The notes: generated by a model from the sequence alone, not told the origin. Positions 4,371 to 22,529 are shown, counted from the stretch's first letter. The stretch: 64,000 bases of DNA from an uncultured Puniceicoccaceae bacterium (GCA_963933925.1 CAWVWU010000001.1:1231-65230), one strand, 5' to 3'. Numbers and translations: made by a program.

Positions 4371-4478
4371 GATGTGACTGGATTTTGGTTGGGGTGTGAT
4401 AGGAAAGTCGAAACAAGGACTTCGATCGTATTACAATTGATTGTGGGACGTCTCTTGTCTCCGGGCCCTTTTCGTTTT

Positions 4479-4521
4479 TGTTATAACATTACGAGAGGGC
4501 TCCTTTTGCAAGTGAAGCGAG
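4479..4521 (+). repeat. J motif copy 4
   Basis: TGTTATAACATTACGAGAGGGCTCCTTTTGCAAGTGAAGCGAG, preceded by GGGCCCTTTTCGTTTT as in copies 8 and 9. Confidence 0.8.
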
Positions 4522-4578
4522 TCCCCCGATTCATGATTTAAGGAGCGAGCTTCACTCCCTAGGATTTGAGTTCGGTGA

Positions 4579-4734
4579 TCAGATCATGATGGCTGTGGTC
4601 TCTTTGGTAAGAGGAAAACTCTTCCCTTGGGGAATTACAAAGTAGCCCTTGGTGGCATTTAGGGTGTTGAAACTTTCGGTGAAGCCACGGCCGGGGTGCT
4701 CGCAAGACGTTTTTGTAGAGTTGTCTGGAGTTAT
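4579..4734 (-). pseudogene. C-terminal gene remnant, possibly of a DUF4143-type ATP-binding protein
   Basis: Manual translation ...RGFTESFNTLNATKGYFVIPQGKSFPLTKETTAIMI*; family resemblance recalled from memory only. Confidence 0.3.
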
Positions 4735-4859
4735 CGAAGAGTCATTAAAGTGGCAAATTCGGAATAGATTCCTAAAAAGCGAGATTTAATAATCTGATTA
4801 GGGAGCAAGGAATGGTGTGGGGTAGGTGAGGACTTTGTCTCGTTTGGCTTCCGGTAAAA

Positions 4860-5942: not shown

Positions 5943-6055
5943 GCATTCCTTGACAACTGAATCTATCGCGGGGGCTTGTGTGAAAATGGACTAATTCTAT
6001 CGTTTGTTTCCCGCTCTCGTAAACGCACAATTCAAGGAGCGAGCTTCCCATTTGC

Positions 6056-6550
6056 TTACCTCCACTTGTAGGTTGTTTTCTCTTCGATTGTGAGGTCTGA
6101 CTTTAAGCTGAGAGATTGCATGAAGGTTGTCAGTTCTGTCTCTGGTATTTTGTTTTTGGGGATAATCAGATTGGCGGCTTGTTTTAGTTTTATAAGAAAC
6201 AGGTTCTCAAGTTCGGTGAGTGATTCTAGGGCTGTGTACTTGATACTTCCGTTGCTTTCGGGTGTTTCAGAGTAGAGGGTATCATCTTCAATGCGAAGTA
6301 TTGCTTCGAGTTCGATCAGACCTTTTTTAGTCTCGGCAATATGCTTTTTGAAGTGTCTTCGGTACTTCCACCTCAGGAGAGGGTTACTGACAACCAACCA
6401 ACCAATCGCTGCACTTGCAAAGCCTATGGCTAATCCCGTTTCGTTGTTGGCGAAGGCGAATGCACTGATACCCGCGTAGATTACGATGCCCCATATTTTC
6501 GATCGTGTTCGTTGAGACCGATGCGTTTTCGTGATGGTCGAAGAGTACAT
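6056..6550 (-). CDS. YcxB-family membrane protein
   Basis: Two TM helices, then ELENLFLIKLKQAANLIIPK; paralogous to 21282-21830. Confidence 0.6.
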   Translation of the reverse strand: MYSSTITKTHRSQRTRSKIWGIVIYAGISAFAFANNETGLAIGFASAAIGWLVVSNPLLRWKYRRHFKKHIAETKKGLIELEAILRIEDDTLYSETPESNGSIKYTALESLTELENLFLIKLKQAANLIIPKNKIPETELTTFMQSLSLKSDLTIEEKTTYKWR

Positions 6551-6600
6551 TTGAAAGTGAATATCTGCACCCTTTGTTGGGCTCTTGTGGTCATGTCGCC

Positions 6601-6790
6601 TTCGGCTCGGTAGCCACCCCGCAGCCCTTCGACAAGCTCAGGCTCTGCGACAAGCTGTCGACTACGTCGATCTCGGATGAACCGAGACGAGGCATCACTG
6701 CAAACAAACGCTTCGCGCTTCGGGGCTTGATGAATCGCAAAATAGTGTATCGAAGCAAGCTTCGAGGAATGAACCCAGTTGCGATTCAAG
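6601..6790. repeat. Cluster of REP-like short palindromic elements
   Basis: CCCTTCGACAAGCTCAGG, TCTCGGATGAACCGAGA hairpin, CGAAGCAAGCTTCG palindrome. Confidence 0.45.
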
Positions 6791-6951
6791 GAGATCGGCT
6801 TCGCTTAAGCTATATTTGATTTCTTGGCTCATGTTTGTAATTGCTGATTAAGGTGTGCTTTTTTTCGAGAGGGTTATTTTCATGGCAAAGCATGAAGGTG
6901 GTTTTTGGGGGCGGATCGTGGAGAAGGGTGTTGGGGTGTTTGGGGCCTAAA

Positions 6952-6992
6952 TGTCAAACATTACGACCTGCCCGCTTTGCGAGTGGAGCGAG
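6952..6992 (+). repeat. J motif copy 5
   Basis: TGTCAAACATTACGACCTGCCCGCTTTGCGAGTGGAGCGAG, preceded by GTTTGGGGCCT; 23 nt from the rsuA stop. Confidence 0.8.
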
Positions 6993-7014
6993 CCCCCCCC
7001 CCCCGGTGTTAGGT

Positions 7015-7713
7015 TTAGGGATTTGGATTTGAGAAGGACTGCACTTCATCGTTTGTTAGAAATCGCCAGTCTCCGAGGGGGACGTCGAGTGATATCTCCC
7101 CGATTTTCTCGCGGTGCAATGAGATGACTCGATTACCGACGGCTGAGAACATGCGTTTGACCTGGTGGTATTTACCTTCGGTGATCGTTAATCTAGCTTC
7201 TTTCGGACCAAGGATTTGTAAGTTTGCTGGTAGAGTTAATTTGGATTCGCCTTGTAGTTGAAATCCACTCTTAAACCGTTCGATCAAGCCTTCCGTTAGA
7301 TCTCGAGATAGACCGACACGATACACTTTCTGACAGTTATTCGCTGGTGTGATAATATCGAATGTCCAACGACCATTGTCGGTGATCAGTACTAAACCCG
7401 TGGTATCGGCATCCAATCGCCCGGCTACATGTAATTCTGAAACCTTCTCGATCTCCAAGGAATTGAAGAGAGACGGATAGGCTCCATCGGCATTCGAGCA
7501 AATCGTGCCCGAGGGTTTGTGCATCAGAAGGTAACGGAAGCTCCGCGTTTTCAGTAATGTGCCATTGAGAGTGATCGTATTATTCTCGTGCACCTGTGCA
7601 GCCTCGTCAGTGATCGTATCACCATTGACCTTCAGTTGGCCATTGTGGATGCATTGAACCGCTTCAGACCTCGTGTATTCGGTACTTTTGCAAACAAATC
7701 TATCTAGGCGCAT
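7015..7713 (-). CDS. rsuA: 16S rRNA pseudouridine(516) synthase
   Basis: N-terminal S4 domain MRLDRF; HKPSG, AGRLDADTTGL catalytic Asp, EGKYHQVKRMF. Confidence 0.9.
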   Translation of the reverse strand: MRLDRFVCKSTEYTRSEAVQCIHNGQLKVNGDTITDEAAQVHENNTITLNGTLLKTRSFRYLLMHKPSGTICSNADGAYPSLFNSLEIEKVSELHVAGRLDADTTGLVLITDNGRWTFDIITPANNCQKVYRVGLSRDLTEGLIERFKSGFQLQGESKLTLPANLQILGPKEARLTITEGKYHQVKRMFSAVGNRVISLHREKIGEISLDVPLGDWRFLTNDEVQSFSNPNP

Positions 7714-7738
7714 GAGAAGGGTTTTTTCCTGTGGGAAT

Positions 7739-7756
7739 TGAAGATTGAAGGGTGAG
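7739..7756 (+). repeat. TGAA-led heptamer repeat
   Basis: TGAAGAT TGAAGGG TGAG upstream of rsuA. Confidence 0.4.
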
Positions 7757-7820
7757 CTCTTCGATGGGCTCAGGATCTACGAGGGTGTGTTTTTTTTAAC
7801 CACGGAAGGGGTGCTGTGAA

Positions 7821-8017
7821 TTTTTTAACCGCCCATCCGCTATGCGGATTCGAGGACGCTGAGAGGGGGAGGTACTCTGATTTTGGGATCGAATCTTCAA
7901 TTTGTAATTTTCATTTACCGCTTGGTGGTGTTTTTCGGGGGCGGTGTATTGATTCGAAACTGACTCTTGAGATTGTTCCGGAGACATTATGTCAATAAAC
8001 ACAGTCTGAGCCCTTTG
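7821..8017 (+). repeat. Direct repeat B copy 1 (ends in J motif copy 6, 7990-8017)
   Basis: Ungapped match to 8529-8725 (offset 708); I count 7 mismatches over the first 178 nt. Confidence 0.95.
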
Positions 8018-8340
8018 TAGCCTACGGCGATAGTGGCGGATGGGTTGTAGTGAGCGGTATGGTAGTTTTTGCTGTCGGCGGCAGTTATTCGAAATTTTCG
8101 AACAACTGAATCTTCGGAGAGTTCATTGTCTTCGAAGATCTTCTTGATGTGATAGTTGATGGTGTGCGTTTTGACGTCGTAGAGCTCTCCCATCATCTTT
8201 TGGCTGAGCCAGATGTCTTCGTTCTCGTAGATCGCTTCGACGCCGCCTTCGCCAGTGGCGGCAATGAAGGTTAGGTACTCGACGGCTGAGGAGCGAACGA
8301 TGGAGGCGGGCTTCTTCTTTTTGTCGGGATCTTTGCTCAT
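7987..8340 (-). pseudogene. rhuM: RhuM-family (virulence RhuM-like) gene, 3'-truncated
   Basis: SSAVEYLTFIAATGEGGVEAIYENEDIWLSQKMMGELYDV...VRKFRITAADSKNY...AVGYK, then leaves homology inside J copy 6. Confidence 0.8.
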
Positions 8341-8341
8341 G

Positions 8342-8435
8342 GGAGGTTGTGTTTGAGGAAGCTTTGATCGAGGGCGACTCTATTGTCTTTGTCGAGGGTG
8401 ATTAGGTCTTGTTCGAAAAAAGGGGGAGTGAGTGG
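8342..8435 (+). repeat. Repeat C copy 2
   Basis: Matches 1850-1944; minus strand reads ...FFEQDLITLDKDNRVALDQSFLKHNLP*, with the stop overlapping the rhuM ATG (ATGA). Confidence 0.85.
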
Positions 8436-8528
8436 GGGAGAGTCGAAAAATGGACCTTCGATGTTTGAGTCCTTTCTTGTCAGGCGGTGACTTTGCTCAG
8501 TACAGGTCAGGATCTGCGAGTTGTGCTA

Positions 8529-8725
8529 TTTTTTAACCGCCCATCCGCTATGCGGATTCGAGGACGCTGAGAGGGGGAGGTACTTTGATTTTGGGATCGA
8601 ATCTTCAATTTGTAATTTTCAATTACCGCTTGGTGGTATTTTACGGGGGCGGTGTATTGATTCGAAACTGACTCTTGAGACTGTTCCGGAGATATCATGT
8701 CAATAAGTACAGCTTGCCCCCTTTG
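8529..8725 (+). repeat. Direct repeat B copy 2 (ends in J motif copy 7, 8698-8738)
   Basis: Ungapped match to 7821-8017; continues CGAGTGCAGGGAG. Confidence 0.95.
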
Positions 8726-8787
8726 CGAGTGCAGGGAGCACTTTAAGCGTTACTTATGTCAATGGATCGTATGTTGGATATTTGGTG

Positions 8788-9762
8788 CTATTTGTCGCAG
8801 CATTTTTTGTATTTCTTTCCGCTACCGCAGGGGCAGGGGTCGTTGCGACCGACTTTGGGGGTGTCTCTAATGAAGGGTTGGTTGGAGGTCTCAGTAGGTG
8901 TGGAAAATGTGGGAAGGGGTTCCTCGTCGAAATTGTCCTCTTCGAGGTCTTTGTCTTCATCGAGATCGGTATCTTTGAATATTTCGTCGTAGAACTCTTT
9001 TTCTTTTTTAGCGGAGGCTTCGGTGAAGCAGTGCCAGGTTGAGAGTTCTTCGTGGGGGTGTTTTAGGAGGCGAAAAGTATTATCGGGAGAGTCTATTGGA
9101 TCCTTCTTTTGGAAGGCTTCTTCTATCTGTTCTTGGGAGTAGAAAGGCATGAAAGGGAAGCCTATTTCGTATTGGTCTTTTATGTGGGGGATGTGCTCTT
9201 CGATGAGAAAGGAGGTGGAGAGCTGTATGGCTGTGTTGCGGAGAACTTCGGGGGCGTCTTTGAGGGTGGATGTGTAGAGAGAATCTAAGTACGAAGTGAG
9301 GATGTCTCGGGAGATTTGTTTGTGGTGATGCAGGATGCCGATGGCACCGAGGGCGGCACTTCGGGAGTATTCGGTGACCCCGTCGTCGTCGACAAGAGCA
9401 TAGAGCTCTAGGGGTGAATCGAAGAAGCAGGCTGCCAGGATTTTGTCGAAGCCTTCACTTATAATGTCGTCGAATTCGTCTTCGGCTTCTTGGCTGTGGG
9501 CTATTTTCGAGAGGACGGTGCGGGCGGAGGTTTCTTTAAAGTGGCCAAGGAGATAGAAGGCGTAGAAGTGAAGCATGTAGTCGTCTTCAAATAATTCGTC
9601 GGGGTCTTCGAGTAGACTGCGTTCGAGGGCTTTGATGAGGTGGGGGATCGCTTCATCTTTACGATCGATGACGGCTTGAATATCATCTGCGGGATAGGGC
9701 CGTTTTAGGGAATAGATTTTTTGAAGGAAATCCGGGAGAGATTCGTAGAATTCTAATGGCAT
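8788..9762 (-). CDS. DUF1186-domain protein with C-terminal SEC-C motif
   Basis: [17 protein letters not shown]-terminal domain, acidic linker, [20 protein letters not shown]. Confidence 0.8.
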
Positions 9763-9988
9763 GGGATGTGGATGGTAAAAGTGAATGAGAAGCGTTTGTA
9801 GGGGATGAAAGCAAATGGAACGAGATCGTCAATGAGGACTGCGGTTTTTCTATGAGGGGAAGAGCCTTTAAATTGAGATCATTTGTGTGAGTAGAGCGAG
9901 TTTGGAAAGGATTTGGGGGCATTGGCCATTACCGAAATGCGCGGGATTGATTTGGAGGTGTAAGATCCGTCGTCTCTCTATCGAGCTT

Positions 9989-10194: not shown

Positions 10195-11199
10195 CTATTT
10201 GGATAGGTTATTTATTTCTGCTTCTAGTTCAGTTAATCCGGCAACGATTTTTTCAAACGATGGACGCCGCCCGAAGATCATATCCTGCATGGCTGAATAA
10301 TCTTTGCCCATTGCGTTGAGAATATTGCTTGGCGGTATTAGTTTAAAGGTGCTCGGTTTTGCGGCATCATAGTTTGCCCAGGTTCTCGGGTAGAATCTCT
10401 TCTTAAAAAGAACCACATCATGCAGAAGGGGTAAGTTGCCTAACGCGTCCGACTTCAGCTGTTTATCTGAAGCCATCAGATGGAGGTCGTAATAGTGTCG
10501 GGAGTATCGCTCGGGAATGACTGAAGATTCGGGGCGGTGCGCTTCGTGATGTAGGATAGTCGCCTTTTCCCAGAAGGTGCGTTCGGCATCGATTGCACGA
10601 ACAGGGCAGATCGGGTCGTCGAATTGATCTGGGAAATCCTCGGCAGCGTAGGGTGTAATCGTATGCTCCGAATGCGGCAGCCAAGATGCCAATGGACCGA
10701 TTTCCAATTGAATGTATGGCAAAAGGCCACTCGTATCCACTGTATGAGGATAGGCAATGCGAACGACATGCCCTTGATCCTTTTCACCGGCTTTCACTTC
10801 CAGTTCGCAATGCGAGCCGAGTGCGTCTCTCAGGAGCGGCAACATTTTTTTGGTGATATGCTCCCGGGCCTTTTCGTTCAGCTCCTCATTGAGCTTTTGC
10901 TGTTTCGTCTTTGACCGTTCACCCATCGGGTCTTGTTCGCCGCTCGCTATTCTCCAATCTAGAACCAAGTCGATGTCTTCGGAAAAGCGGTCGATGAGTC
11001 CGTAGACCTTCGATAGGCTGGTGCCGCCTTTGAAGATTAGTTGTTTTGAAAGCTCTGGGTGCTCGAACAAGTGCTTCAGCGTCCAGCAGACCCAGAAGTC
11101 CTTTTCCACGATGGCACTCGTTCCCATTCCGCGCTGTTACGCCGTCACCATAAACAGTTCATTGCGATCTTTCGCCGAGAGTGCCGCAACGCGATTCAC
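10195..11199 (-). pseudogene. abiEii: AbiEii-family nucleotidyltransferase toxin with in-frame TAA at codon 21
   Basis: GTG start 11199 overlaps the antitoxin TGA; MNRVAALSAKDRNELFMVTA*QRGMGTSAIVEKDFWV...FKGGTSLSK...RFSEDIDL...ERTFWEK...RHYYDL. Confidence 0.85.
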
Positions 11200-11807
11200 G
11201 ATGCGTTCTCCTTGGCTATGGTTCGTATGATATCAGACACCCAAGCGGGAGCCGTTTTTGTGTCTCGAAGGATTTTATCCCACTTGGGCGAGGTGATCGC
11301 GTCCTGAAGCTTCTTTCGAATGCCTGCAGTGATGCGATCTTGTCCCAAAGCCTTTAGCGCCTGAACGACTAGTTCGCTTTCGCCGTGTTTGAATCCGGAT
11401 TCTTTTAAGATCCGTTTTTTGAATGCCAGTTCTCGTTTTCCGATCGCAAAGGTTTTACTGGGCCCATCGGACAAGTAAATTGCTTGAGCTGGAACCTGTG
11501 TTGAAAGTCCCAGAATATTGAGTGCTGTATTTTCAGAAGGCTGTATGCGCCAACCCGATTTGCGTGCCAGGGCCTGGGCTACTTGCTTAATATCTGGTTC
11601 CATCGGACCGTTGATCAGTTTGCTTGTTCGAGGGTAGTCGTATAAGCCGAGCAGTACCCTTCGAATCGTCCCCTTGGCTTCCAAGTTCGTCAGCGCCTTG
11701 CGGGCAGAATCGTCGCTTCCAATATCCAAAAAATCGTTTTTAGAAAATGCCCAACCCCTATGATTGGCATAAATTCTCTTAACTATCTTGTTTTCAATGG
11801 ATTCCAT
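11196..11807 (-). CDS. AbiEi-type antitoxin (DUF6088-like)
   Basis: N-terminal HTH (ARKALTNL...IRRVLLGLYDYP), ALNILGLSTQVP; coupled to AbiEii. Confidence 0.8.
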   Translation of the reverse strand: MESIENKIVKRIYANHRGWAFSKNDFLDIGSDDSARKALTNLEAKGTIRRVLLGLYDYPRTSKLINGPMEPDIKQVAQALARKSGWRIQPSENTALNILGLSTQVPAQAIYLSDGPSKTFAIGKRELAFKKRILKESGFKHGESELVVQALKALGQDRITAGIRKKLQDAITSPKWDKILRDTKTAPAWVSDIIRTIAKENAS

Positions 11808-12020: not shown

Positions 12021-12401
12021 AGAACCGTCCCGCTTAGGGGGAAATGCGAATACATGCGTACCGAGGCTGTAAGCCGACACATGAGGATCCCGCATGCGGG
12101 AGACGAAATATGATGAGGATGTTTTTGTTTAACCGTCCCGCTTAGCGGGATAAACTAAAGGCAGATTAGAAATTTGGTGGTTTTTTAACCGCCCATCCGC
12201 AATGCGGATTCGAAGACGCTACTTCGACTTTGCTCAGTACAGGTAAGGTCGCGAAGATTGAGAAGTGTTTTGGGGATTTCTTAGGTTGTGCTATTTTTTT
12301 TGACCACGAATTAGACGAATTAGACGAATCTTGATGTGGTTGTTATGGTTGTGTGTTTTTAACCGCTAAATTCACTAAAGGACGCTAAGGTCGCAAAGAG
12401 G
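12021..12401 (+). repeat. Array of five AACCRC + 9-10-nt periodic elements, three with nested hairpins
   Basis: Units at about 12021, 12127, 12181, 12290 and 12348, e.g. GACCACGAATTAGACGAATTAGACGAATC. Confidence 0.7.
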
Positions 12402-12606: not shown

Positions 12607-12731
12607 GGGTGTCGTGTTCTTTGAGTTCTTTGGAGAGGATTAGGCGGTAGCGGGGATCAAGGCGATAGTTTGGGGCCTTTCGTTTTTTGTTATAACATTA
12701 CGAGCTGGCTCCTTTTTGCGAGCGGACCGAG
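12607..12731 (+). repeat. Direct repeat A copy 1 (ends in J motif copy 8, 12688-12731)
   Basis: ...TTTGAGTTC.TTGGAGAGGATTAGGCGGTAGCGGGGATCAAGGCGAT.GTTTGGGGCCTTTCGTTTTT..., matches 14389-14511. Confidence 0.95.
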
Positions 12732-12814: not shown

Positions 12815-14200
12815 TTAAGCTACGGAATCCAAAGTAGAAGTGATCGCGTCTAGGTTTTTCTGGGCGGTTTTGCGGAGGTCGGAGAACAGGTGGGCTTCTG
12901 CGATGAAACGGGACCAGAATCGTTGGGCAGCTTGAGCAGCGGGGATCCAGGTTGGGAGTTCTTCGGGGCGTGGAGGGTGGACTTCGATTGGGCGAGTGGG
13001 GAGGTCGCCGGTGCGTTGAGGAGCGTACCGCATCGGTAGCATGTCGTAAATGGGACAGAGCTTGAGGGGGAGTTCTGGAGTTAGGAAGAGGCTGAGGTTC
13101 CCTAGATGTCTGTCGGAGTTGCCAATGAGGCGGCCAAAGTGGTCGAAGGTGGCTATGTGGTCGGCGTCGGTTTGGCTAAGCCAGGATTTCTGGACGAGGG
13201 TTTGAGATGAGAGTGTCCAGGATTGGTCGAGTGGCTCGCCGAGTCCAGCGAGGACGGTGCGTAGCATGAGTGTGGGGATGCGGCCGTGACGTCCTGATCG
13301 GTCGAAGCGTTCGACCTCGAGAAAGGTTCGCTGATTTGTCGGGACAAATTCTGTCAGAGGGCTGGGTAAGCCAATATTGGCAAGTTCTTCGGAAGCGATG
13401 GCTTCGGCTTTTAGGAGGTCGGCCCAACGGCGACCTGCATCGGTTTGGAGTGAGCCGGAGAATTTTACGATTACGTGGCGGAAGCGATCGTCTGAGGTAC
13501 GAATGCAGGCTGTTAATTTGGGTTGTTCTCCGCCGGCGGAAGAGTTGGGGAGGTCGTCTCCTTCAGATATGTTGTGAGCGATGAGTTCGTAGCTTCTTCT
13601 TCGGTCGGCTTCGTCAATGAATGGGGACTGACTTTTAGCTTGGAGGAAAGTGTCTATCGCTTGGCCGCCAAGGATGAAATGTCCTGGGGTATCGTTGCCG
13701 TGTGAGAGGATTGCGGTAAGGGCTTCGTCGATATTCCAGTTTTCAGGATTGGTCCCGATCCTGAGAGTTGGGCCATGGGTGTGAGCGAGCAGGCGGCCGA
13801 GGTAGCCCTGTGGTCGCATGTCGTCTAGAAACCATGGGAGGTCAGGAAATAGATGGGGGTGGTCCTCGCCGTTGAGGAGGTAGGCGTAGTCTTCATTATT
13901 CCCTTTCGGCTCAAGATAGAATTCGCCTTGATGGAGTGCATGGAGTGTCGCAGCTACCTGTGCCTGGCCGGTCTTGTCGATTTGGTAGAGGTTCCAGCTC
14001 GAGTCCTTGTCGTTGAGACGCCGTTGGAGGGCGTAGCGGGCTCGGCGTGTTCGGCCGATTCGGAGGATGTTTTTGGAGGCTCCGAGTGCTCGGGAAACGG
14101 TGGGCTGGCTAACCCCTAGCTGGCGGGCGATGTCCGATGAGGACATTGAGCCTTGGCTGGCGAGGAGGCGTTCGATGGGTATTGTGTGTTTTTGATTCAA
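12815..14200 (-). CDS. yjjJ: HipA-like kinase with N-terminal HTH (YjjJ/HipH type)
   Basis: N-terminal HTH (DIARQLGVSQPTVSRAL), PWFLDDMRPQGYLGR, SSAGGEQPK, VKFS, ERFDR, GNSDRHLGN, PIYDMLPM. Confidence 0.85.
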   Translation of the reverse strand: MNQKHTIPIERLLASQGSMSSSDIARQLGVSQPTVSRALGASKNILRIGRTRRARYALQRRLNDKDSSWNLYQIDKTGQAQVAATLHALHQGEFYLEPKGNNEDYAYLLNGEDHPHLFPDLPWFLDDMRPQGYLGRLLAHTHGPTLRIGTNPENWNIDEALTAILSHGNDTPGHFILGGQAIDTFLQAKSQSPFIDEADRRRSYELIAHNISEGDDLPNSSAGGEQPKLTACIRTSDDRFRHVIVKFSGSLQTDAGRRWADLLKAEAIASEELANIGLPSPLTEFVPTNQRTFLEVERFDRSGRHGRIPTLMLRTVLAGLGEPLDQSWTLSSQTLVQKSWLSQTDADHIATFDHFGRLIGNSDRHLGNLSLFLTPELPLKLCPIYDMLPMRYAPQRTGDLPTRPIEVHPPRPEELPTWIPAAQAAQRFWSRFIAEAHLFSDLRKTAQKNLDAITSTLDSVA

Positions 14201-14388: not shown

Positions 14389-14511
14389 GGGTGTAGTGCT
14401 CTTTGAGTTCCTTGGAGAGGATTAGGCGGTAGCGGGGATCAAGGCGATCGTTTGGGGCCTTTCGTTTTTGTTAAAACATTACGACCCGACCCCTTTTGCG
14501 AGCGGAGCGAG
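14389..14511 (+). repeat. Direct repeat A copy 2 (ends in J motif copy 9, 14469-14511)
   Basis: Matches 12607-12731. Confidence 0.95.
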
Positions 14512-14597
14512 CCTCTGCGTCGAGAGTTCAGACTCGTGCCAGGATTTGAGGGGCTGTTGCCGGTCGGTTGCCATCTATCAAGATTTAAGAGCTGTCC

Positions 14598-17500
14598 CTA
14601 TTTTTTTGGGAGTCGAGAAAGAGACGGTGGATTGGGGGTCTTGTAGTATACTTCGCAAATGGGGATTCCCCATTCTGTTTGGTGGAGAGCGTTTTTGGCA
14701 TGGTCGTTCTCTCCGTCGCTGGATTTCCTGATGTGGATTCCAATGACGGTCACTTTCAGGATACCATCGATCCGTCTACGCCAGTTTTCGACTCCTTTTC
14801 TGGATAGACAGGCGACCGTTATGCCCTCGTCGTTCCTTATTTCAATTCGGACCTGTTCCTCAGGTGTCGAATAAGAATGTAAGTGAACGAGCTCGTTGGT
14901 TTGAAGTCTCTCTATTGCTAGCAGGCTTCCGTTTCCGTTCCGGCGTGTAGCCGCGAAATCGATCCACAGTTCGTCTAGGCTTAGCAGACTACATCTAATT
15001 TCGAGCTTATCTGCGGATGATCGATCGGTGTCTATTCGTCGTTCGATCGTGTCAGGAGAAACTATTTCTTCGACGAATCTGTTTCCGGATTCATTGAGCC
15101 GAACGATGGCCAAAGATTTTTTAGCGCGCGTCATCGCCACGTAGAAGATTCGCCGCTCTTCCTCGATCTCACGCCGGGAGTTCGTTCTTGGGTTCCAGGC
15201 TCCGTCCAGAATGAATACGTGATCGAATTCGAGGCCCTTTGCCTTGTGGGCAGTCGATAGCCGAACGCCTTCGCGGGAGGAGTTTCTGTCCTTCTCGGTA
15301 ACCATTTCGCTAAAGAAAAGGTCTATGTCGGCTACCCGTTGTTCGGTTCCTCCAGTTTCGCCGTAAAACGAGCTCGCGATACTTTCGAGGACTTGTCCAT
15401 GGGGGTCGTTCAGGTCGTTGGTTGAAAGGAAATCCCGAAGCTTCTCCTGAAGCTGTACTCCAGTCCAGAATTCGTCTCTCTTAGCCTTTAGGGACTCGAT
15501 CCAGCGATGGATCGTCCTTGCCCGCCTGAGTCTAGGCATGCCCTCTTCCCCGAGGATCGCGACGGCCACGCCGGCGTCCTCCAGGATCAGTCGCACAATG
15601 GTCAGTGCCTGGTTGGTGCGGGCGAAAACGCAGAAGTCTTTCCAATCAGCATCCACTAGGATACCCTTGAGGCGGAATATCTCCGCAACGCAGGCTTCCG
15701 CTTGGTGCACTCTACCATCGGCTTCGATAATCTGTACCCGTCCTTTTGCGATCGGATCTAGTTCTTCCAGTATCCCGCCAGCGTGCTCGGCTCGCCGATC
15801 TCGATTCCGCTGGATGGGGTATTCGATCTTCATCCGATCCTTGTTGAGCGAAATCAGATGATTGGAAGCAGCTATGATATTTTCGGTCGATCGGTAGTTC
15901 TCGATTAGGTAGTGACGTTCGATGAAACTCGACTCGTTACCACCTTCGCCAACGCTATTTGCGTAGTCCGTTTCGTAGCGGCGTATGAATTCGACGTTCG
16001 CTCCCGCGAATCCGTATATGCTCTGGTCGTCATCGCCGACTGCCATGATGCTTAGCTTGTCCTCTTCCGATTCCTTCGACTTTCCCGCGATGAGGGAGAC
16101 CAGTTCGTATGCGTCCGGCCCGATGTCCTGGTATTCGTCTACGAGGATGTGGGTGAGGTTTCCGACCAGCTTTTCGCGGAATTCGTCCGCCTCCATTCCG
16201 ATCGGCACCTCTTCGCTTTTCAGCATTCGATTGGCCGCAGGGATAAGCTCTTCGAATGAAAGTTTTCCATCTCCTACTCCTTCGTCGAGGTCGGCCATGG
16301 TTCGGCCTAGGATCTTCAGGGCCAAGCCGTGGAAGGTCTGAATCGTAACCGCCGAGGCATCCTTTTCAACAAGTCCCCAAAGGCGGCGGCGAATATCGAG
16401 CGCCGCGAATCGGTTGAAGCACAGAATGACGATGCCTTGGCCTCTCACTCTGTCCACGCGTAGCAACCACGCGCACCTATGTACGATAACGCGCGTCTTG
16501 CCTGAGCCAGGACCGGCTAGAGTGAGAATGTTATTCCGCTCCCGAGAGGCGACAATAGCCTGTTGTTTGGGATTGCCGAGGCTTTCGTAAATCTTGCGGT
16601 AGGACTCTATTCCTGTCGCATACTCCAGATACTTTTCCTTTCCCGTAAAAAACCGTTTGATGAACCGGTCGCCCTCCATTCGGAAGTACTCTTTAATGAA
16701 GTGCAGATGCGTCCCGATTTCCTTGATGCCCTTGTTGGCATACTCTCCGATAATGTGGACTTGCAGGATCTTCTCCACGAAATGTACTGCGAGCGGTGCA
16801 TAGTCTCCGTTGGTAAACAAGCGCGCCCGTCGCCCTTTTTTGTGATCCTTCAGGTACAAGGTCATGGCAGAGGTGATGAGCGACTTGCCCTGCTGCAGCT
16901 CTATGACCTTGCTGTCGTGCATCCAAAGCAACGCGTGGTGCAGCGCTTCCGGAAGGCTCTTAACTTGCTTGGCAATTCCGGACAAGTCTCCGACCACATG
17001 ATCGACGAGCTCCGATTCGCTAAACGAAACGATATCGTCCGGTCTTGTTTCGTGCTTAGATTGTAGCAGGTCGAGTATCAGAGCCGCGAGATCCCTTCGG
17101 ATCGCCGAGAGGCGAAGTACTTCGTCCCATGTGCTCCGGAGAAGGAACTTCATCGTATCGGATGAGGATTGGCTGACTTCGACTCCCGGTATGCCGTTTT
17201 CGAGTTTGGTCCAATCGTCTCTAAGGTACTTGACCGTTCTCCCTAACGTATCGGCGTGGGACCGAAGCCCGCTTCGGCAAAGCGCCTCGTTCGCCTTGCG
17301 AAGGTTCAGAATACAGGCGCCATCCACTGCAGGTTCCTCGACTTGCATGAGCTTAATAAGCGCGGCTTCCAGTTGCGAGAGGAGCAGGAGCTTCTTCGAC
17401 GGGCTTTGGTTTCCTGATTGTAGAAACGCAGTGAAGAGCAGGTCCTTCTTCAGCAGCGCTGCTTCGGGTTTCGCCATCTCGTTCAAGACCCGGAATACCA

Positions 17501-19901
17501 CGGTATTTAAACTTGTGATACGCGGGTCTCGCTTCTTCGCCCGTTCGAATTCCTGCTGCATCTCCTCTATTTGAGAAAACTGGCTCAGTTCGGAGCTTTT
17601 GTTCTCAGGCATCTCGAAGAACTGCTCCATCACAGCCATCCACAGCCGGTTCTGTTCGATGGTCAGGTTCAGCCTATGAATCCTTTCCCTTGCTTCTTCC
17701 TGGTCCCTGACGAGCGCTCTTGCTTGAAAAACGCGAGAGCGGTTCTCCCGCCGTTCGAGGAAGTCCTGGCGTTCCAGCAAGGCGATCGCGGTTTGAGTCT
17801 TCGTCTTTCGATTGCCGCCCTGTTCTCCGTCGAAGGAAATGCCGCTCGACGATTTGCTCGACAGGATTTCGTCAACGGTCAGCACGATCGCGCCGTTTTC
17901 GTCCGACCTCGCGCTTCGGATCGTTCTCCAGATTATCTGGATGTCCTTTTTGGTTATCTTAGAGAATGCTACGAAGCTGTGCTGAGTTTCGAGGTCTCCC
18001 TCGTTGAAGAGCAGGATGCATTCTGCTTCCGCCCCGTCCCGGCCGGCTCTGCCAGCTTCCTGAAGGTAGTTCTCCAGCGAGCCAGGTGAATCCACGTGAA
18101 TGACATAGCGAATATCCGGCTTGTCCACTCCCATTCCGAACGCGTTGGTCGATACGATGATCTTAAGCGTTCCACCGAGGAATCCTTCCAGAATTTGCTT
18201 CTTTTCCTCGGATTCCAGTCCGGCGTGATAGGCCTTGGCTTTCCATCCCTTGAGGCAAAGGTTCTCCGCGTATTCCTGCGTTGTGGCGCGGGTTGCGGCG
18301 AATATAACGACCGATCCCTTGTCTTCATAGACTGGAATCTCGCCGTAGTAGCTTGAAAGGATTTCAACTACCCTTTGCTGTTTGGCCGAAGAGTTAACGC
18401 TTTCGACTGTATAGTTAAGGTTGTCTCTGTCCGTACCGCCATCGTTCAGGGCGATCTTTACCCCAAGCTCCGTTTCGAAATGGGAGCAGATGTCATCCTT
18501 GACATCCTTTTTGGCGGTTGCTGTCAGGGCCATTATTATGGGGCAGTCCAACCCTTGCTCCTCGGCAAGCTTGCGGATGAATTTGGCAGCATAGAGGTAG
18601 TCCGGGCGAAAGTCGTGGCCCCACTTGGAAAGACAATGGGCCTCGTCGAAGATCCAGAAGGCGATCTCGCGATTCTTGATTGCATTCCTAAAGGCGTTGC
18701 TGCGCAACTGTTCCGGCGCCACATAGATCAGGCCGACGCTGCCGTGGGAGATGTCGTGCAGGCACGCCTGGCGTTCGAGAGGGGTCAGCATGCCGTAGAG
18801 GGCGTTGCAGTGCAGGATACCAACGCGGCTTCTCAGATTCTCCACTTGATCCTTCATCAAGGACTGTAGTGGCGAAACGATGACCGAAAGCGCCCCGGTG
18901 CATTCGTATCGATGGAGAGCGGGTATTTGGAAGCAGATCGATTTGCCGCCGCCAGTCGGTAAAATAGAGAGGCTCGATTCCCCTTGCATAGCGATAGCTA
19001 CGATCTGTTCCTGCAGGCTCTTGTCCGGCTCTCCCGGGACGCAAGGTTCAGCCCGAAATGAAGGGAAATGGAAATAGCGTTGCAGGGACTTGGCCGGCGA
19101 ATGCATCTCCGAGCAGTAGACGCATTCCGCCAAACCGCAGTGGACGGTACGAACGGCGTGCAGGTAGCCCCGAATCTTTGGAAAGCGGTGGCAGAGCCAG
19201 TAGGGAAGGACTGAATCGGCTCCGGCCACGTTAAGCCAGGAGTGTATGAATCCGTAGACGAGGTAGTCTTCGGGTTCAGCAATGCTCGGCAGGTTTTCGT
19301 GGCAGCACCTGCCGTAATTGAGGGACTTGAAACTCGCTATAAAGCTCGTGCTTTGGCAATCTGCTTCGTCGCCTTGGGCGGTAGTCGGCTCTTGCGAGCC
19401 TAGGAGTTTAAGCAATCTAGCGGTACCTGGAAGCCCAGCCGCGAGGAAAGTCGTCGCGTAGAATCCTAGGTCGACCGGGCTGGACTTGGATAGCGCGATG
19501 ACGCACTCTTGCAGCACTTTGGAGCAGCAGGTTGAATCCGCGACGGGATCGTTGCGGGAGGCGCTGACAAGTTTCCCTTCCTTTACAAGTGCATGGTAAG
19601 GTTTCTTGGGAAACGCCAGCGGCGATAGCAAAAGCGTATCCAATCGCTTTTCTTTCATTATGCTTCCGAATGGAGTCTTCTCCAGAAGTGGGAAATCGTG
19701 GAGCAACGAATTATGCCCGCATACGAAATCCGCTTCGTTGGCCCAGATTCGCAGGATAGGCAACGCTTCCTGGACCGCTTTGGCATTGCTCGCCCTCAGT
19801 GGCTTTCGATCTCCGAATACAGCGCCTAGTCCGTAGATCGTACCTTCGTCACTGGTTTCTATATCGAGAAATAGGATACGTTCAATTGCTGGATTCATCA
19901 A
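14598..19901 (-). CDS. Multidomain DnaQ-like exonuclease + RecQ (SF2) helicase + UvrD/Rep (SF1) helicase fusion, 1767 aa
   Basis: FLDIETS/GHNSLLHD (DEDD-like); PTGGGKS, DEAHC..WGHDFRPDY, TATA, QEAGRAGRDG (RecQ); AGPGSGKT, VDEYQD, GDDDQSIY, NYRS, STAHKAKGLEF, YVAMTRA (UvrD). Confidence 0.9.
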   Translation of the reverse strand: MMNPAIERILFLDIETSDEGTIYGLGAVFGDRKPLRASNAKAVQEALPILRIWANEADFVCGHNSLLHDFPLLEKTPFGSIMKEKRLDTLLLSPLAFPKKPYHALVKEGKLVSASRNDPVADSTCCSKVLQECVIALSKSSPVDLGFYATTFLAAGLPGTARLLKLLGSQEPTTAQGDEADCQSTSFIASFKSLNYGRCCHENLPSIAEPEDYLVYGFIHSWLNVAGADSVLPYWLCHRFPKIRGYLHAVRTVHCGLAECVYCSEMHSPAKSLQRYFHFPSFRAEPCVPGEPDKSLQEQIVAIAMQGESSLSILPTGGGKSICFQIPALHRYECTGALSVIVSPLQSLMKDQVENLRSRVGILHCNALYGMLTPLERQACLHDISHGSVGLIYVAPEQLRSNAFRNAIKNREIAFWIFDEAHCLSKWGHDFRPDYLYAAKFIRKLAEEQGLDCPIIMALTATAKKDVKDDICSHFETELGVKIALNDGGTDRDNLNYTVESVNSSAKQQRVVEILSSYYGEIPVYEDKGSVVIFAATRATTQEYAENLCLKGWKAKAYHAGLESEEKKQILEGFLGGTLKIIVSTNAFGMGVDKPDIRYVIHVDSPGSLENYLQEAGRAGRDGAEAECILLFNEGDLETQHSFVAFSKITKKDIQIIWRTIRSARSDENGAIVLTVDEILSSKSSSGISFDGEQGGNRKTKTQTAIALLERQDFLERRENRSRVFQARALVRDQEEARERIHRLNLTIEQNRLWMAVMEQFFEMPENKSSELSQFSQIEEMQQEFERAKKRDPRITSLNTVVFRVLNEMAKPEAALLKKDLLFTAFLQSGNQSPSKKLLLLSQLEAALIKLMQVEEPAVDGACILNLRKANEALCRSGLRSHADTLGRTVKYLRDDWTKLENGIPGVEVSQSSSDTMKFLLRSTWDEVLRLSAIRRDLAALILDLLQSKHETRPDDIVSFSESELVDHVVGDLSGIAKQVKSLPEALHHALLWMHDSKVIELQQGKSLITSAMTLYLKDHKKGRRARLFTNGDYAPLAVHFVEKILQVHIIGEYANKGIKEIGTHLHFIKEYFRMEGDRFIKRFFTGKEKYLEYATGIESYRKIYESLGNPKQQAIVASRERNNILTLAGPGSGKTRVIVHRCAWLLRVDRVRGQGIVILCFNRFAALDIRRRLWGLVEKDASAVTIQTFHGLALKILGRTMADLDEGVGDGKLSFEELIPAANRMLKSEEVPIGMEADEFREKLVGNLTHILVDEYQDIGPDAYELVSLIAGKSKESEEDKLSIMAVGDDDQSIYGFAGANVEFIRRYETDYANSVGEGGNESSFIERHYLIENYRSTENIIAASNHLISLNKDRMKIEYPIQRNRDRRAEHAGGILEELDPIAKGRVQIIEADGRVHQAEACVAEIFRLKGILVDADWKDFCVFARTNQALTIVRLILEDAGVAVAILGEEGMPRLRRARTIHRWIESLKAKRDEFWTGVQLQEKLRDFLSTNDLNDPHGQVLESIASSFYGETGGTEQRVADIDLFFSEMVTEKDRNSSREGVRLSTAHKAKGLEFDHVFILDGAWNPRTNSRREIEEERRIFYVAMTRAKKSLAIVRLNESGNRFVEEIVSPDTIERRIDTDRSSADKLEIRCSLLSLDELWIDFAATRRNGNGSLLAIERLQTNELVHLHSYSTPEEQVRIEIRNDEGITVACLSRKGVENWRRRIDGILKVTVIGIHIRKSSDGENDHAKNALHQTEWGIPICEVYYKTPNPPSLSRLPKK

Positions 19902-19952: not shown

Positions 19953-20966
19953 TCAACGATCATTTGAAGTGGATGGGTGTGGGATGCACGCTGCTTTGGT
20001 TGGTTTCAGTTTTTTGATGGCCTCGCGTAGGTATTTGAAGTTTATGTTTTCTCCTTCGAACATTGGGTATCTAACTCCATCGATGGTGATGCTAAATTTC
20101 TTTTTTGATAAATCGCACTGGTAGGTCGCCTTACAGGTAATCGTTTCGCTTACATTAGTGTGATCCAAAATATAAGTACGAATACTGTTTAGAGCATCTT
20201 TGAGTGGGGTTATTGTCGTGTTGTTCGTTGCTGAAGTATATTTAGATCTATTCTCTTGGACCTGAAAAAAGATAGAAATCACAATTGCGGCTTCTTTGGG
20301 TTTTTCTTGTTTGAGTAGTCTTCCAACGAGTTCTGTTGAACCTATTAAAAAGAGTATCTCTTCGACGGATTTAGAGTTGGCGTGGAAGTCTGTTGCTCGT
20401 TCCTCTATGGAAAGAAGACGTCTTGCTGCTTCGAATTGTTGTTTCCCAAAGCCCGATCCATTAAACAAATCGTGATTAATATCGTTGATTTTTAGGAAGA
20501 ACGTGTTGCGTGCCAGCGAGTGCTCGTAACTGAAACGCAATGTAGCATCTTCGTCTATTTTAAGCGTCTTTGTCAGAAATTCATTTATTGCACCCGCTAG
20601 ACTAATAGCCGGCATTATAGATAGGATATTGAGAGACGGCCGTTTTGAAGAAATCTTTCCGAATCTTGCATCGAAGTCTTGTTGATAGAAGTGTGCTAGG
20701 ATCGCACTTGCTCTAATCGCTGCGGAAGCATCACCTTTCTTAAGAAGGTCTGAGACGAGGTCGAATACTCCATGAAAGAAGAGAACAGCCTCCGTGTTCG
20801 TTGGCTTTTCATCGCGTTTGATTTCTGTCTTGGGAACTTGCTTTGGTTTGTTTTGCTTTGGTGGTTCTTTATCGAGCTGGATTTGACACTTTGGGTTTGT
20901 TATGACGAGGACGATTGAGATCGGATGGACGACGTAAGCCCTTCCACTAAAAGCTCTTTCTATCAT
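19953..20966 (-). CDS. Hypothetical protein with two-fold internal domain duplication
   Basis: 337-aa ORF, visibly AT-rich, 52 nt upstream of the helicase fusion; repeated units starting EAVLFFHG and EEILFLIG; start uncertain. Confidence 0.65.
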   Translation of the reverse strand: MIERAFSGRAYVVHPISIVLVITNPKCQIQLDKEPPKQNKPKQVPKTEIKRDEKPTNTEAVLFFHGVFDLVSDLLKKGDASAAIRASAILAHFYQQDFDARFGKISSKRPSLNILSIMPAISLAGAINEFLTKTLKIDEDATLRFSYEHSLARNTFFLKINDINHDLFNGSGFGKQQFEAARRLLSIEERATDFHANSKSVEEILFLIGSTELVGRLLKQEKPKEAAIVISIFFQVQENRSKYTSATNNTTITPLKDALNSIRTYILDHTNVSETITCKATYQCDLSKKKFSITIDGVRYPMFEGENINFKYLREAIKKLKPTKAACIPHPSTSNDR

Positions 20967-21281: not shown

Positions 21282-21830
21282 CTATTTCCAGGGGCGGGTG
21301 CTGTCGTTGGTGATGGGGCGTGTGCTTTGTTGAGAGAGAGTTTGGATAAAGGCGTCTAGCTCGCCAGATATGATACCGTCTTTGGGGATCATTATGGAGT
21401 TGGTGTTCTCTAGGTTAACGAGGTAAAGACTTTTTATTTCGGTAATGGATTGGATTGACGCGAATTGGGCGGTGCCGCCGAGGTTGAGTTCTTGGGAATT
21501 AAGGCCAGTCGCGTCGAGGGAGAGAGTGGCTTCGACGCCGATGTTGGAGCCTTCCATTTTGTGTATTTGCTTTTTGAAGTGTTGGGTGAAGCGCCAATGG
21601 GTGTACTTCTTGTTGAAGATAAACCAGAGGCCGCAGTAGAAGAGCAAGCAGGCGGACATGGTGGTTTCGCCGCGGATAAAGGCGAAGAATCCGAGGAGTG
21701 CACCGAGCAGAATCGGGAGTAGAAGAGTGCGAAAGCGTTGTTGGCAATGACTTGGAATTAGGAGCGTGGTGTACATCTGAAACTCGAGGTAGTCGGTTTC
21801 GGTAAGACTGTATCGAATTGAGGAAGTCAT
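21282..21830 (-). CDS. YcxB-family membrane protein
   Basis: YSLTETDYLEFQMY, two TM helices, EIKSLYLVNLENTNSIMIPK. Confidence 0.7.
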   Translation of the reverse strand: MTSSIRYSLTETDYLEFQMYTTLLIPSHCQQRFRTLLLPILLGALLGFFAFIRGETTMSACLLFYCGLWFIFNKKYTHWRFTQHFKKQIHKMEGSNIGVEATLSLDATGLNSQELNLGGTAQFASIQSITEIKSLYLVNLENTNSIMIPKDGIISGELDAFIQTLSQQSTRPITNDSTRPWK

Positions 21831-22172: not shown

Positions 22173-22529
22173 TGGTGGAGGTGGCGGGAATTGAACCCGC
22201 GTCCCTCGAGCCTTTGCGCAAGGCGTCTACATGTTTGTCTTCGTTTTTATTCTCGCTAATACAGACGCGACGAAACCGCGCTTCTGTATTCGCTAGCCCA
22301 CTGAGGAAGTACGATTTAGGCGCAGCAGATAGCCACCTAAACTATGCTCGTTGTCGTCGCTCCACTCTACCTAACGAGTATCAGTAGGGGAACGTAGCTG
22401 AACTAAGCAGCTAGAGGCATTTCTTCAAATGTGCCATTTAGTTTTTTTGATGGAAGATTAAAGAGGCCAACCATCATCCTCTACATGCAGCCAGACGCTC
22501 CAACAAAAGGTCGAATCCAGAACACCCCC
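22173..22529 (-). ncRNA. ssrA: tmRNA
   Basis: 5' GGGGGUGUUCUGGAUUCGAC; 3' GACGCGGGUUCAAUUCCCGCCACCUCCACCA; tag ORF 22435-22403 encodes GTFEEMPLAA*; 357 nt. Confidence 0.97.

Follow-up and report, generated by a model that had tools for sequence, protein, structure and literature searches.

We identified a giant gene in a window of 64,000 nucleotides from an uncultured Puniceicoccaceae bacterium (GCA_963933925.1, CAWVWU010000001.1:1231-65230; the window denotes this whole stretch, and positions are counted from its first letter). Our best reading is of a horizontally mobile gene for a self-contained helicase-nuclease that acts on 3' DNA ends or forks. The product joins in one chain a DnaQ-like domain, a putative zinc finger, a RecQ-family helicase core of superfamily 2 (SF2), a family-specific linker, a UvrD-type helicase of superfamily 1A (SF1A) and a C-terminal domain with a HIRAN-like predicted fold. 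We favour foreign replicating DNA (phage or plasmid) as its target because the gene is mobile and has defence-type neighbours; this placing is drawn from gene context, and we give it about an even chance.

Gene structure and composition

The gene lies in an uninterrupted open reading frame (ORF) of 1767 codons on the minus strand (14598..19901). This ORF opens with TTG (19901), followed directly by ATG, and since homologues begin at the Met, the gene was taken as 14598..19898, encoding 1,766 amino acids (aa) from an ATG start (Table 1). An ORF of such length with two full helicase motif sets is no chance feature, and the protein is identical to the database protein P0001. The first-pass annotation of this DNA had described the same ORF, leaving its strand unstated, and all the motifs that it quoted were located in the protein, in the order given there.

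The guanine-plus-cytosine (GC) content of the giant gene is 0.535. It is thus more GC-rich than the 337-aa ORF upstream (0.416), as had been remarked before, but it is unexceptional beside the housekeeping mdh and DAHP synthase genes (0.52). The gene itself is compositionally ordinary, and the mosaic is the island, in which GC ranges over 0.416-0.563. A scan for promoters and terminators around the gene returned counts equal to the chance expectation, and a search of expression data found related words in one marine-metagenome DNA run and in 0 RNA runs. No Verrucomicrobia-type LexA box (TGTTC-N4-GAACA) was found near or upstream of the gene in the window, and regulation by the SOS response was rejected on the ground that the gene has no LexA box near it.

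Table 1. Modules of the giant gene and other features of the window (AF2, AlphaFold2; HTH, helix-turn-helix)
Feature	Position	Strand	Evidence or remark
Whole giant gene	14598..19898	-	1766 aa + stop (14598-14600)
aa 1-140, predicted DnaQ-like (DEDD) 3'-5' exonuclease fold	19479..19898	-	Alignment, AF2, Foldseek
aa 141-290, helical region ending in Cys cluster	19029..19478	-	Alignment, AF2
aa 291-645, RecQ-family SF2 helicase core, motifs 0-VI and aromatic-rich loop	17964..19028	-	Pfam, NCBIfam, PDB
aa 646-1100, family-specific linker (~450 aa)	16599..17963	-	Conservation; no confident match
aa 1101-1610, UvrD/Rep/PcrA-type SF1A helicase, motifs I-VI intact	15069..16598	-	Pfam, PDB
aa 1611-1766, beta-rich C-terminal domain, HIRAN-like predicted fold	14601..15068	-	AF2, Foldseek
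tmRNA gene, bounding the variable region	22173..22529	-	mscS, mdh and DAHP synthase genes beyond
Orphan 337-aa ORF upstream of the giant gene	19953..20966	-	GC 0.416; not a conserved partner
HTH and HipA_C kinase gene (YjjJ/HipH-like), downstream of the giant gene	12815..14200	-	Pfam
AbiEi (11196-11807) and AbiEii (10195-11127), abortive-infection/toxin-antitoxin pair	10195..11807	-	Pfam AbiEii, DUF6088; PADLOC AbiEii 3e-99, AbiEi 3e-60
yhcG	4860-5942	-	9 kb from the giant gene
RhuM-like truncated ORF	7987-8340	-	Sub-threshold, E 0.0065
125-nt element directly 3' of the giant gene	14389..14512	-	Second copy 12607-12731, 3' of the hipH-like gene, 90-95% identity

The N-terminal domain and Cys cluster

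The exonuclease region carries the motifs LDIE (aa 11), GHNSLLHD (aa 61) and NDPVAD (aa 116). On the basis of the motif pattern, and not of superposition, we assigned Exo I to D12 and E14, Exo II to H62-N63...H67-D68, and Exo III to D121, all of which are invariant. In an alignment of 20 sequences, the invariant positions of aa 1-140 were D12, E14, H62, N63, H67, D68, D87, Y101, H102, K106, P118 and D121, and the four acidic residues D12, E14, D68 and D121 were invariant wherever the N-terminus was complete.

The AlphaFold2 model of aa 1-290 (predicted local distance difference test, pLDDT, 86.8; predicted template modelling score, pTM, 0.84) consists of a beta-alpha, exonuclease-like half followed by helices. 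When it was compared with the PDB using Foldseek, nearly all the highest-ranked matches were DnaQ-like 3'-5' exonuclease domains, in agreement with the DnaQ-like N-terminus proposed by the first-pass annotation. They included E. coli Pol II, T7 DNA polymerase, the TREX1 homologue Plex9.1, S. aureus DinG, NrnC and EXD2, with probabilities of ~1.0, E values of ~6e-3 and upward, and query-normalised TM scores of only 0.24-0.43. A profile of the N-terminus additionally gave a weak match to the exonucleases 9l85/9mrc, and aa 1-290 had no Pfam or NCBIfam match, including to curated exonuclease models such as RNase_T and DNA_pol_A_exo1. The model and the alignment support an exonuclease fold with four acidic metal ligands, from which we infer a putative exonuclease activity.

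The helical region ends in a Cys cluster (CGLAECVYC at aa 254), where C199, C254, C259 and C262 are invariant and H266 is nearly so. RecQ motif 0 (F281, R282 ... Q296) comes after this cluster, which, standing ahead of the RecQ core, is a putative zinc finger.

The RecQ core and linker

The full RecQ motif set seen by the first-pass annotation was recovered, including PTGGGKS (aa 314), DEAH (aa 418), the aromatic-rich loop HCLSKWGHDFRPDY (aa 421) and QEAGRAGRD (aa 613). The Pfam domains DEAD and Helicase_C matched aa 295-622 above their gathering cut-offs, and the recQ_fam model TIGR00614 scored 285.7 bits against a curated cut-off of 219.8. A family profile built from 30 sequences matched the cores of RecQ, RECQ5, BLM, RECQ1 and WRN in the PDB with E values of 1e-65 to 1e-90. 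The equivalog models TIGR01389 and PRK11057 scored the RecQ core far below their cut-offs; lying far below such equivalog cut-offs, neither motor of the protein is orthologous to RecQ, UvrD, PcrA or Rep.

Against the RecQ structures of E. coli, D. radiodurans and human, the profile matches reach no further than the end of the core, at residue 345 of E. coli RecQ, indicating that no RQC zinc and winged-helix module follows, and consistent with the earlier remark that the linker has no obvious RQC Cys motif. There was no Pfam match to an HRDC domain at E<=0.1 in the whole protein. An RQC or HRDC domain hidden in the linker was rejected, as neither appeared in the PDB and Pfam searches, which gave weak winged-helix-type matches only.

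The linker has a mean pairwise identity of 39% within the family, with conserved blocks that include QQGKALITQAMT and QVHIMxEYA. Searched against PDB sequences, its profile found nothing credible and no RecQ structure, the best match being a kinase at E 0.52. In a few members we identified weak Pfam matches of winged helix-turn-helix type (DUF4194, DUF2398, MksE, TrmB and Penicillinase_R, E 1e-3..3e-2), and the linker possibly consists of tandem winged-helix modules.

The UvrD module and C-terminal domain

The second motor carries GPGSGKT (aa 1129), DEYQD (aa 1254), GDDDQSIY (aa 1288), ENYRS (aa 1333), TAHKAKGLEF (aa 1549) and YVAMTRA (aa 1586), that is, the complete UvrD set previously reported for it. 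Within aa 1109-1599, it matched UvrD-helicase (PF00580) with 138.9 bits and UvrD_C (PF13361) with 93.9 bits, above the curated cut-offs of 23 and 25.6, respectively; AAA_19 and UvrD_C_2 were also matched. The family profile identified UvrD, PcrA, Rep and UvrD1 in the PDB at E values of 1e-50 to 1e-67. The catalytic motifs of both ATPases were invariant in 30 sequences of 38-75% identity, and the Walker A/B pairs, which had been described as intact, are so in both motors.

The C-terminal domain is the least conserved part of the protein (30% identity), with only W1706, W1743 and E1749 invariant. Its AlphaFold2 model (pLDDT 83.6) is confident in the core, and the 13 best PDB matches of this model in Foldseek were all to the HIRAN domain of HLTF (4xzg, 5bnh, 4s0n, 6kcs) or to lp_0118 (3k2y), a bacterial protein of the HIRAN family, in keeping, at the level of the predicted fold, with the HIRAN-like tail that the first-pass annotation had thought possible. 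These matches had probabilities of 0.90-0.99, but E values of only 0.03-0.12 and target-normalised TM scores of 0.40-0.58. In BFVD, the model matched small uncharacterised phage proteins (E 2e-5 to 5e-3), and a sequence search of the PDB gave no match for this domain. A RecB/AddA-like PD-(D/E)xK nuclease at the C-terminus was rejected, as it had no sequence match and the fold resembles HIRAN instead.

Family distribution and mobility

We identified more than 100 full-length homologues of 1,720-1,790 aa, with 38-75% identity and the same Pfam architecture. Their hosts include Opitutales and Puniceicoccaceae (Verrucomicrobiota), Desulfuromonadales (Geopsychrobacter, Pelobacter seleniigenes), Syntrophaceae, Sedimenticola and others, and a scan of species-representative genomes added Methylobacter, Chromatiaceae, Pseudomonas sp. 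S30, Tritonibacter, Rhodobacter, Arenicellales and Acidimicrobiaceae. The family thus occurs in Verrucomicrobiota, Pseudomonadota, Desulfuromonadales and Acidimicrobiia. Database entries that are named at all call it simply "RecQ family ATP-dependent DNA helicase". At a threshold of E<=1e-3, a profile of the N-terminal region retrieved 1,729 clusters (50% identity), of which 450 remained at E<=1e-30; the full-length matches have 1,680-1,900 aa. Split-gene versions, with an exonuclease-RecQ protein and a separate UvrD-HIRAN protein, were rejected, as the inspected matches of 1,000-1,400 aa were truncated or frameshifted gene calls. The one-chain architecture is fixed, with its modules kept together across hundreds of divergent members, and the invariance of the ATPase sites and acidic exonuclease residues indicates joint selection on all modules.

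One homologue (P0101, 1,949 aa) has an additional Peptidase_S24 domain of the LexA/UmuD type in its C-terminal ~180 aa, beyond the HIRAN-like domain. This domain hints at self-cleavage triggered by RecA* or single-stranded DNA as a regulatory input.

No neighbour family was shared among 22 loci in an all-against-all BLASTP of their ORFs, and relatives with 75% and 68% identity have unrelated surroundings, indicating that the family is mobile and autonomous. A conserved partner gene was likewise rejected: ORFs of 364 aa lie downstream at three loci (L001, L085 and L090), which is a coincidence of length, as they form no cluster and at least those of L001 and L085 are unrelated. In the window, the 337-aa ORF upstream of the giant gene had no Pfam or PADLOC match, and none of the other family members has a homologue of it alongside.

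The family was found on 17 plasmid records, all large plasmids or chromids, and in none of the 50,697 phage records searched. These records bear on whether the gene might serve mobile elements themselves, as a replication, maintenance or competition factor of a plasmid or island, or as a counter-defence enzyme, a helicase-nuclease clearing away host nucleoprotein or rival replicons. Such a role would accord with the plasmid and chromid copies, with the insertion sequence (IS) elements, integrases, resolvases and toxin-antitoxin (TA) modules that adjoin family members, and with chromosomal synteny that is not conserved. We nevertheless consider it improbable: beyond the absence from phage records, most of the carrier plasmids were typed as non-mobilizable megaplasmids or chromids, which are home to accessory host genes too, the plasmid loci read showed no linkage to rep, par or tra genes, and many chromosomal copies have no mobile genes nearby.

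Genomic contexts of the family

We read by hand the contexts of 19 loci with described neighbours, counting recognised defence systems within 10 kb. Six of the 19 have recognised systems. The window locus has AbiE, the hipH-like gene and yhcG, beside the tmRNA gene. L085 has DISARM-like SNF2 and MZB genes with an Eco57I-type methyltransferase (MTase), GmrSD, HNH and an integrase, and L090 has a type I restriction-modification (R-M) system, Dam and an integrase. The family member on Allochromatium plasmid pALVIN01 (L095) adjoins a type I R-M system and HNH, that on Thiothrix plasmid pTfr153 (L094) lies 4 kb from a type I-D CRISPR-Cas system, and that of Tritonibacter scottomollicae (L011) abuts a PDC-S37/Hhe-like helicase gene. 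Probable defence genes were identified at a further three: MTase, SMC-like, UvrD and DUF429 genes at L001, AAA_21 and RloB at L086, and SNF2-NOV_C and Dam at L093. Conserved housekeeping synteny, which had been named beforehand as the observation that would speak against defence, was not seen, nor was any conserved synteny at all.

As a rough control, we compared the neighbours of family members with those of ordinary recQ genes, using PADLOC at E<=1e-15. The loci for this comparison came from a scan of genome contigs with generic RecQ peptide patterns, in which 13 of 80 loci proved to be family members and some of the others formed the control set. Around the 13 family loci, 110 neighbours matched 38 PADLOC families with many system names, including PDC-S01, PDC-M21A/B, AriA (twice), PD-T4-4_A and PD-Lambda-2_B. 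Around ordinary recQ, 108 neighbours matched 21 models with six names, of which 17 were SNF2-type (ZorD, DpdE, DrmD) and the rest DrmC, mad2 and BrxH. The PADLOC names of the family's neighbours are thus more varied than those around ordinary recQ.

We additionally observed several local arrangements. At L011, a 1,963-aa DUF4011 helicase (3975-9863; PADLOC PDC-S37 1,200 bits, Hhe E 1e-165) has its gene in stop/start overlap with that of the family member, placing two giant helicase genes in tandem. In two unrelated hosts the giant gene is closely followed by a gene for a HipA-type kinase, as an HTH-HipA fusion in the window and as separate HTH and HipA genes on Rhizobium ruizarguesonis plasmid pRlX2 (L098, 15136-16732), a recurrence that may be coincidence in TA-rich islands. 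At L094 (15676-16257) and L095 (22452-22959), both on gammaproteobacterial plasmids, a separate small protein annotated as a '3'-5' exonuclease' is encoded within 9 kb of the family member.

Comparison with known helicase-nucleases

PADLOC v2.0.0 had no full-length model for the giant protein and gave domain-level matches only (DpdF, PsyrT and GajB), in line with the earlier statement that no named defence system has this architecture. A full-text literature search found no description of a single chain with exonuclease, RecQ, UvrD and HIRAN-like modules, its coverage being incomplete and an earlier description possible. The combination of the four modules in one chain is thus one that neither PADLOC v2 nor the searched literature describes, while its kind, the helicase-nuclease fusion, is known and has been a recurrent solution in bacterial immunity and DNA repair.

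The best PADLOC matches of aa 270-660 were DpdF (341 bits) and PsyrT (RqlH; 270 bits), whose RecQ-type cores likewise lack the C-terminal domains of the classical housekeeping enzymes. These proteins require partners, PsyrA and the dpd cluster, respectively, whereas the giant gene matches them over the core only, and PADLOC identified no PsyrA, GajA or Dpd match among the window neighbours, nor was there a conserved partner family in the 22 loci. The likeness to PsyrT raises the question of whether the gene encodes an abortive-infection or toxin-type helicase, which would be genotoxic unless restrained in cis by a domain of its own or in trans by a variable neighbour. RqlH is reportedly genotoxic unless restrained by RqlI, to go by the title of Russell & Mulvey 2015, and TA or abortive-infection genes neighbour the family in the window and at L096, L098 and L099. 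Family members have no conserved small partner gene beside them, however, the 337-aa ORF upstream occurs in the window alone, and the 270-bit similarity to PsyrT is confined to the generic RecQ core; we therefore regard a toxin of this type as very improbable.

The best PADLOC match of the giant protein over aa 1110-1610 was GajB (159 bits), another UvrD-type SF1A module used in defence. Gabija needs a separate nuclease, GajA, which was not among the PADLOC families listed for the neighbours, whereas the nuclease of the giant protein is fused and DEDD-type. RecQ-like (PsyrT, DpdF) and UvrD-like (GajB) modules, the best domain matches of the protein in PADLOC, thus already serve defence systems. 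Nhi, Hna and Hhe are also large autonomous polypeptides that join a helicase to a nuclease and occur in defence islands. They have one motor and other nuclease types, in contrast to the two motors of different superfamilies, DEDD exonuclease and HIRAN-like domain found here.

RecBCD/AddAB are dual-motor helicase-nucleases that load at DNA ends, and their subunits RecB and AddA are homologues of the UvrD-type module. RecBCD is multi-subunit, with motors of opposite polarity and a PD-(D/E)xK nuclease. The giant protein, in contrast, is one chain with both motors from 3'-5' families, a DEDD nuclease and no evident Chi-recognition apparatus. S. aureus DinG (9ii8_A, query TM 0.43) similarly fuses an N-terminal DnaQ-like exonuclease to a helicase, but is an XPD-type SF2 enzyme of ~900 aa without a second motor or HIRAN-like domain.

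Among eukaryotic enzymes, WRN has an N-terminal DEDD-superfamily 3'-5' exonuclease followed by a RecQ core in the same chain, and its core was matched at E ~3e-66. The exonuclease of WRN belongs to the RNase D/DEDDy type, and its RecQ core is accompanied by RQC and HRDC domains; the giant protein, by contrast, lacks the canonical Tyr/His, RQC and HRDC, and adds an SF1A motor and a HIRAN-like tail. HLTF/Rad5 fuse a HIRAN domain to a DNA motor, and the giant protein is predicted to do likewise with a HIRAN-like one, HLTF HIRAN and lp_0118 being the top structural matches of its tail. The motors differ, being single-stranded DNA (ssDNA) translocases (SF1A and RecQ) here and an SNF2 double-stranded DNA translocase there, and the likeness to HIRAN is at the level of the fold only.

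Defence or fork repair

These eukaryotic likenesses bear on a further reading, in which the gene encodes an accessory enzyme of DNA repair or fork processing, a WRN plus HLTF/FBH1-like protein whose gene would be an optional passenger of islands, chromids and plasmids. Its substrates would be stalled or regressed forks, gaps, and recombination intermediates of the host or of the plasmid itself. The domain combinations match eukaryotic enzymes, WRN being a strong PDB match for the RecQ core and HLTF HIRAN the best fold match for the tail. FBH1 is described as a UvrD-family enzyme of fork reversal (PMC12946210, PMC13252103). The L089 family member comes straight after uvrC, with holA and cinA close by, that of L097 adjoins a topoisomerase and RNase HI, P0101 carries the S24 peptidase domain of LexA/UmuD type, and one third of the loci are without nearby defence or mobile genes.

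The synteny and distribution of the family argue in the other direction. No repair gene is in conserved synteny with the family, the distribution is patchy, and the location differs between close relatives. The family often abuts R-M, CRISPR, abortive-infection or DISARM-like genes. The window has no Verrucomicrobia-type LexA box upstream of the gene, and RQC and HRDC, the domains with which housekeeping RecQ recognises its substrates, are absent. The anatomy of the protein suits such an enzyme just as well, and we regard repair as a serious alternative, though a less probable one than action on foreign DNA.

Several points weigh against the favoured reading, in which the protein is an exonuclease-bearing, HIRAN-equipped enzyme directed at foreign DNA. 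The canonical fifth catalytic residue of the exonuclease is absent. As the first-pass annotation had recognised from NDPVAD, which stands where DEDDh enzymes have H.A..D, the DEDDh His position is occupied by Asn116 (Ser in some members), and the DEDDy Tyr position is D, N or H across members. The confidence of the N-terminal model is lowest at aa 100-120, the segment with the invariant Y101 and H102. Because of this non-canonical residue and weak segment, exonuclease activity is not assured. For the tail, no Pfam HIRAN match was found in the whole protein, nor in the C-terminal segments of 21 members (E<=10), and the domain is best called HIRAN-like, its predicted similarity being fold-level only with E of about 0.03.

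The contexts are mixed as well. Four of the 19 loci have IS or TA genes only (plasmids, L096-L099), and six have housekeeping-like surroundings (L002, L084, L087, L088, L092 and L089, the last being the locus that follows uvrC). The anti-phage or anti-plasmid role put forward by the first-pass annotation therefore stands by association, with defence genes at about half of these loci, while about a third look housekeeping-like. The case for such a role is guilt by association over about 19 loci, and the pairings of exonuclease with RecQ and of HIRAN with a motor are classic repair or fork-remodelling architectures, as in WRN and HLTF.

Proposed mechanism and significance

RecQ and UvrD/SF1A motors both translocate 3'->5' on ssDNA, and DEDD exonucleases remove nucleotides from 3' ends. 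Free 3'-OH DNA ends are bound by HIRAN domains (Kile et al. 2015; Hishiki et al. 2020, as cited in PMC8262856), and for the HIRAN domains of bacterial HipA-type TA modules (HipL/HipN) a role in sensing the ends of phage DNA has been proposed (PMC8262856).

The favoured reading of a mobile helicase-nuclease acting on foreign DNA suggests the following order of events. The protein would load at a free 3' end or a junction of single- and double-stranded DNA, through its C-terminal domain and the adjacent UvrD motor. Candidate substrates are nicks, gaps, forks that have stalled or regressed, and intermediates of rolling-circle or recombination-dependent replication. The two motors of the same polarity, ~450 residues apart, might then engage two arms or strands, and unwind or regress the branched DNA, while the N-terminal exonuclease would digest the released 3'-ended strand. 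Replicating foreign DNA, whether of a phage or a plasmid, would thereby be destroyed or stalled by a one-gene system without partners, like Nhi, Hna and Hhe.

A bolder form of this proposal, which we hold only tentatively, is that the family is a one-gene immune system that has escaped recognition, in effect 'WRN + HLTF' fused in a bacterium. In it a HIRAN-like sensor would recognise foreign DNA in replication by its forks or free 3' ends, the coupled RecQ and UvrD motors would unwind or regress these structures, and a non-canonical DEDD exonuclease would erase the nascent strand. If true, an antiviral fusion of this kind would link eukaryotic fork-remodelling modules to prokaryotic immunity. 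A defence protein would add a single-gene system, and a way to study 3' ends or forks as non-self signals; a repair enzyme would be a bacterial counterpart of WRN/HLTF-type fork processing. Either would provide a compact model for the cooperation of two same-polarity motors. The role is directly testable in culturable carriers, which include Allochromatium vinosum DSM 180, Cereibacter sphaeroides, Geopsychrobacter electrodiphilus and Tritonibacter scottomollicae.

Neighbouring genes and repeats in the window

On the minus strand, the gene order is a YcxB-like gene, the 337-aa orphan, the giant gene, the YjjJ/HipH-like HTH-HipA kinase gene and AbiEi/AbiEii, continuing beyond AbiE with genes for a DUF1186/SEC-C protein, a RhuM fragment, an RluA-like protein, a second YcxB-like protein and YhcG. 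The first-pass annotation had placed the giant gene among yjjJ, AbiE, rhuM and yhcG next to tmRNA. Of these neighbours, the yjjJ/hipH-like gene, AbiE, tmRNA and yhcG are all present, but yhcG is 9 kb away and rhuM is only a sub-threshold fragment. The YjjJ/HipH-like family consists of monocistronic toxin-type kinases (PMC8262856). The two YcxB-like proteins are small and both encoded on the minus strand, one adjoining the tmRNA gene (21282-21830) and the other yhcG (6056-6550). An integrative island targeting tmRNA was rejected, as there is no integrase among ORFs of >=150 aa at 1-27.7 kb and no duplicate of the tmRNA 3' end.

Shorter copies of the 125-nt element found 3' of the giant and hipH-like genes lie at 4463-4525, 6956-6994 and 8697-8739, 3' of the yhcG, rluA-like and DUF1186 genes, respectively. 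At all five genes the element is in the orientation of the gene itself, with the repeat core GCTCGCTCCRCTCGCAAAAGGGGnCnGGTCGTAATGTT. It was not found in the rest of the window or at any of the retrieved loci, and its minimum-free-energy folds contain no attC-like hairpin. These copies could represent cassette ends, recombination scars or a REP-like element; an integron-like cassette array was rejected, as there is no IntI and no long attC-like hairpin.

We additionally identified a second repeat family, with two copies of 198 nt at 7820-8017 and 8528-8725 (93% identity) and a third copy of 40 nt at 12181-12220. It contains the perfect palindrome ATCCGCTATGCGGAT, and one of its copies overlaps the truncated RhuM-like ORF.

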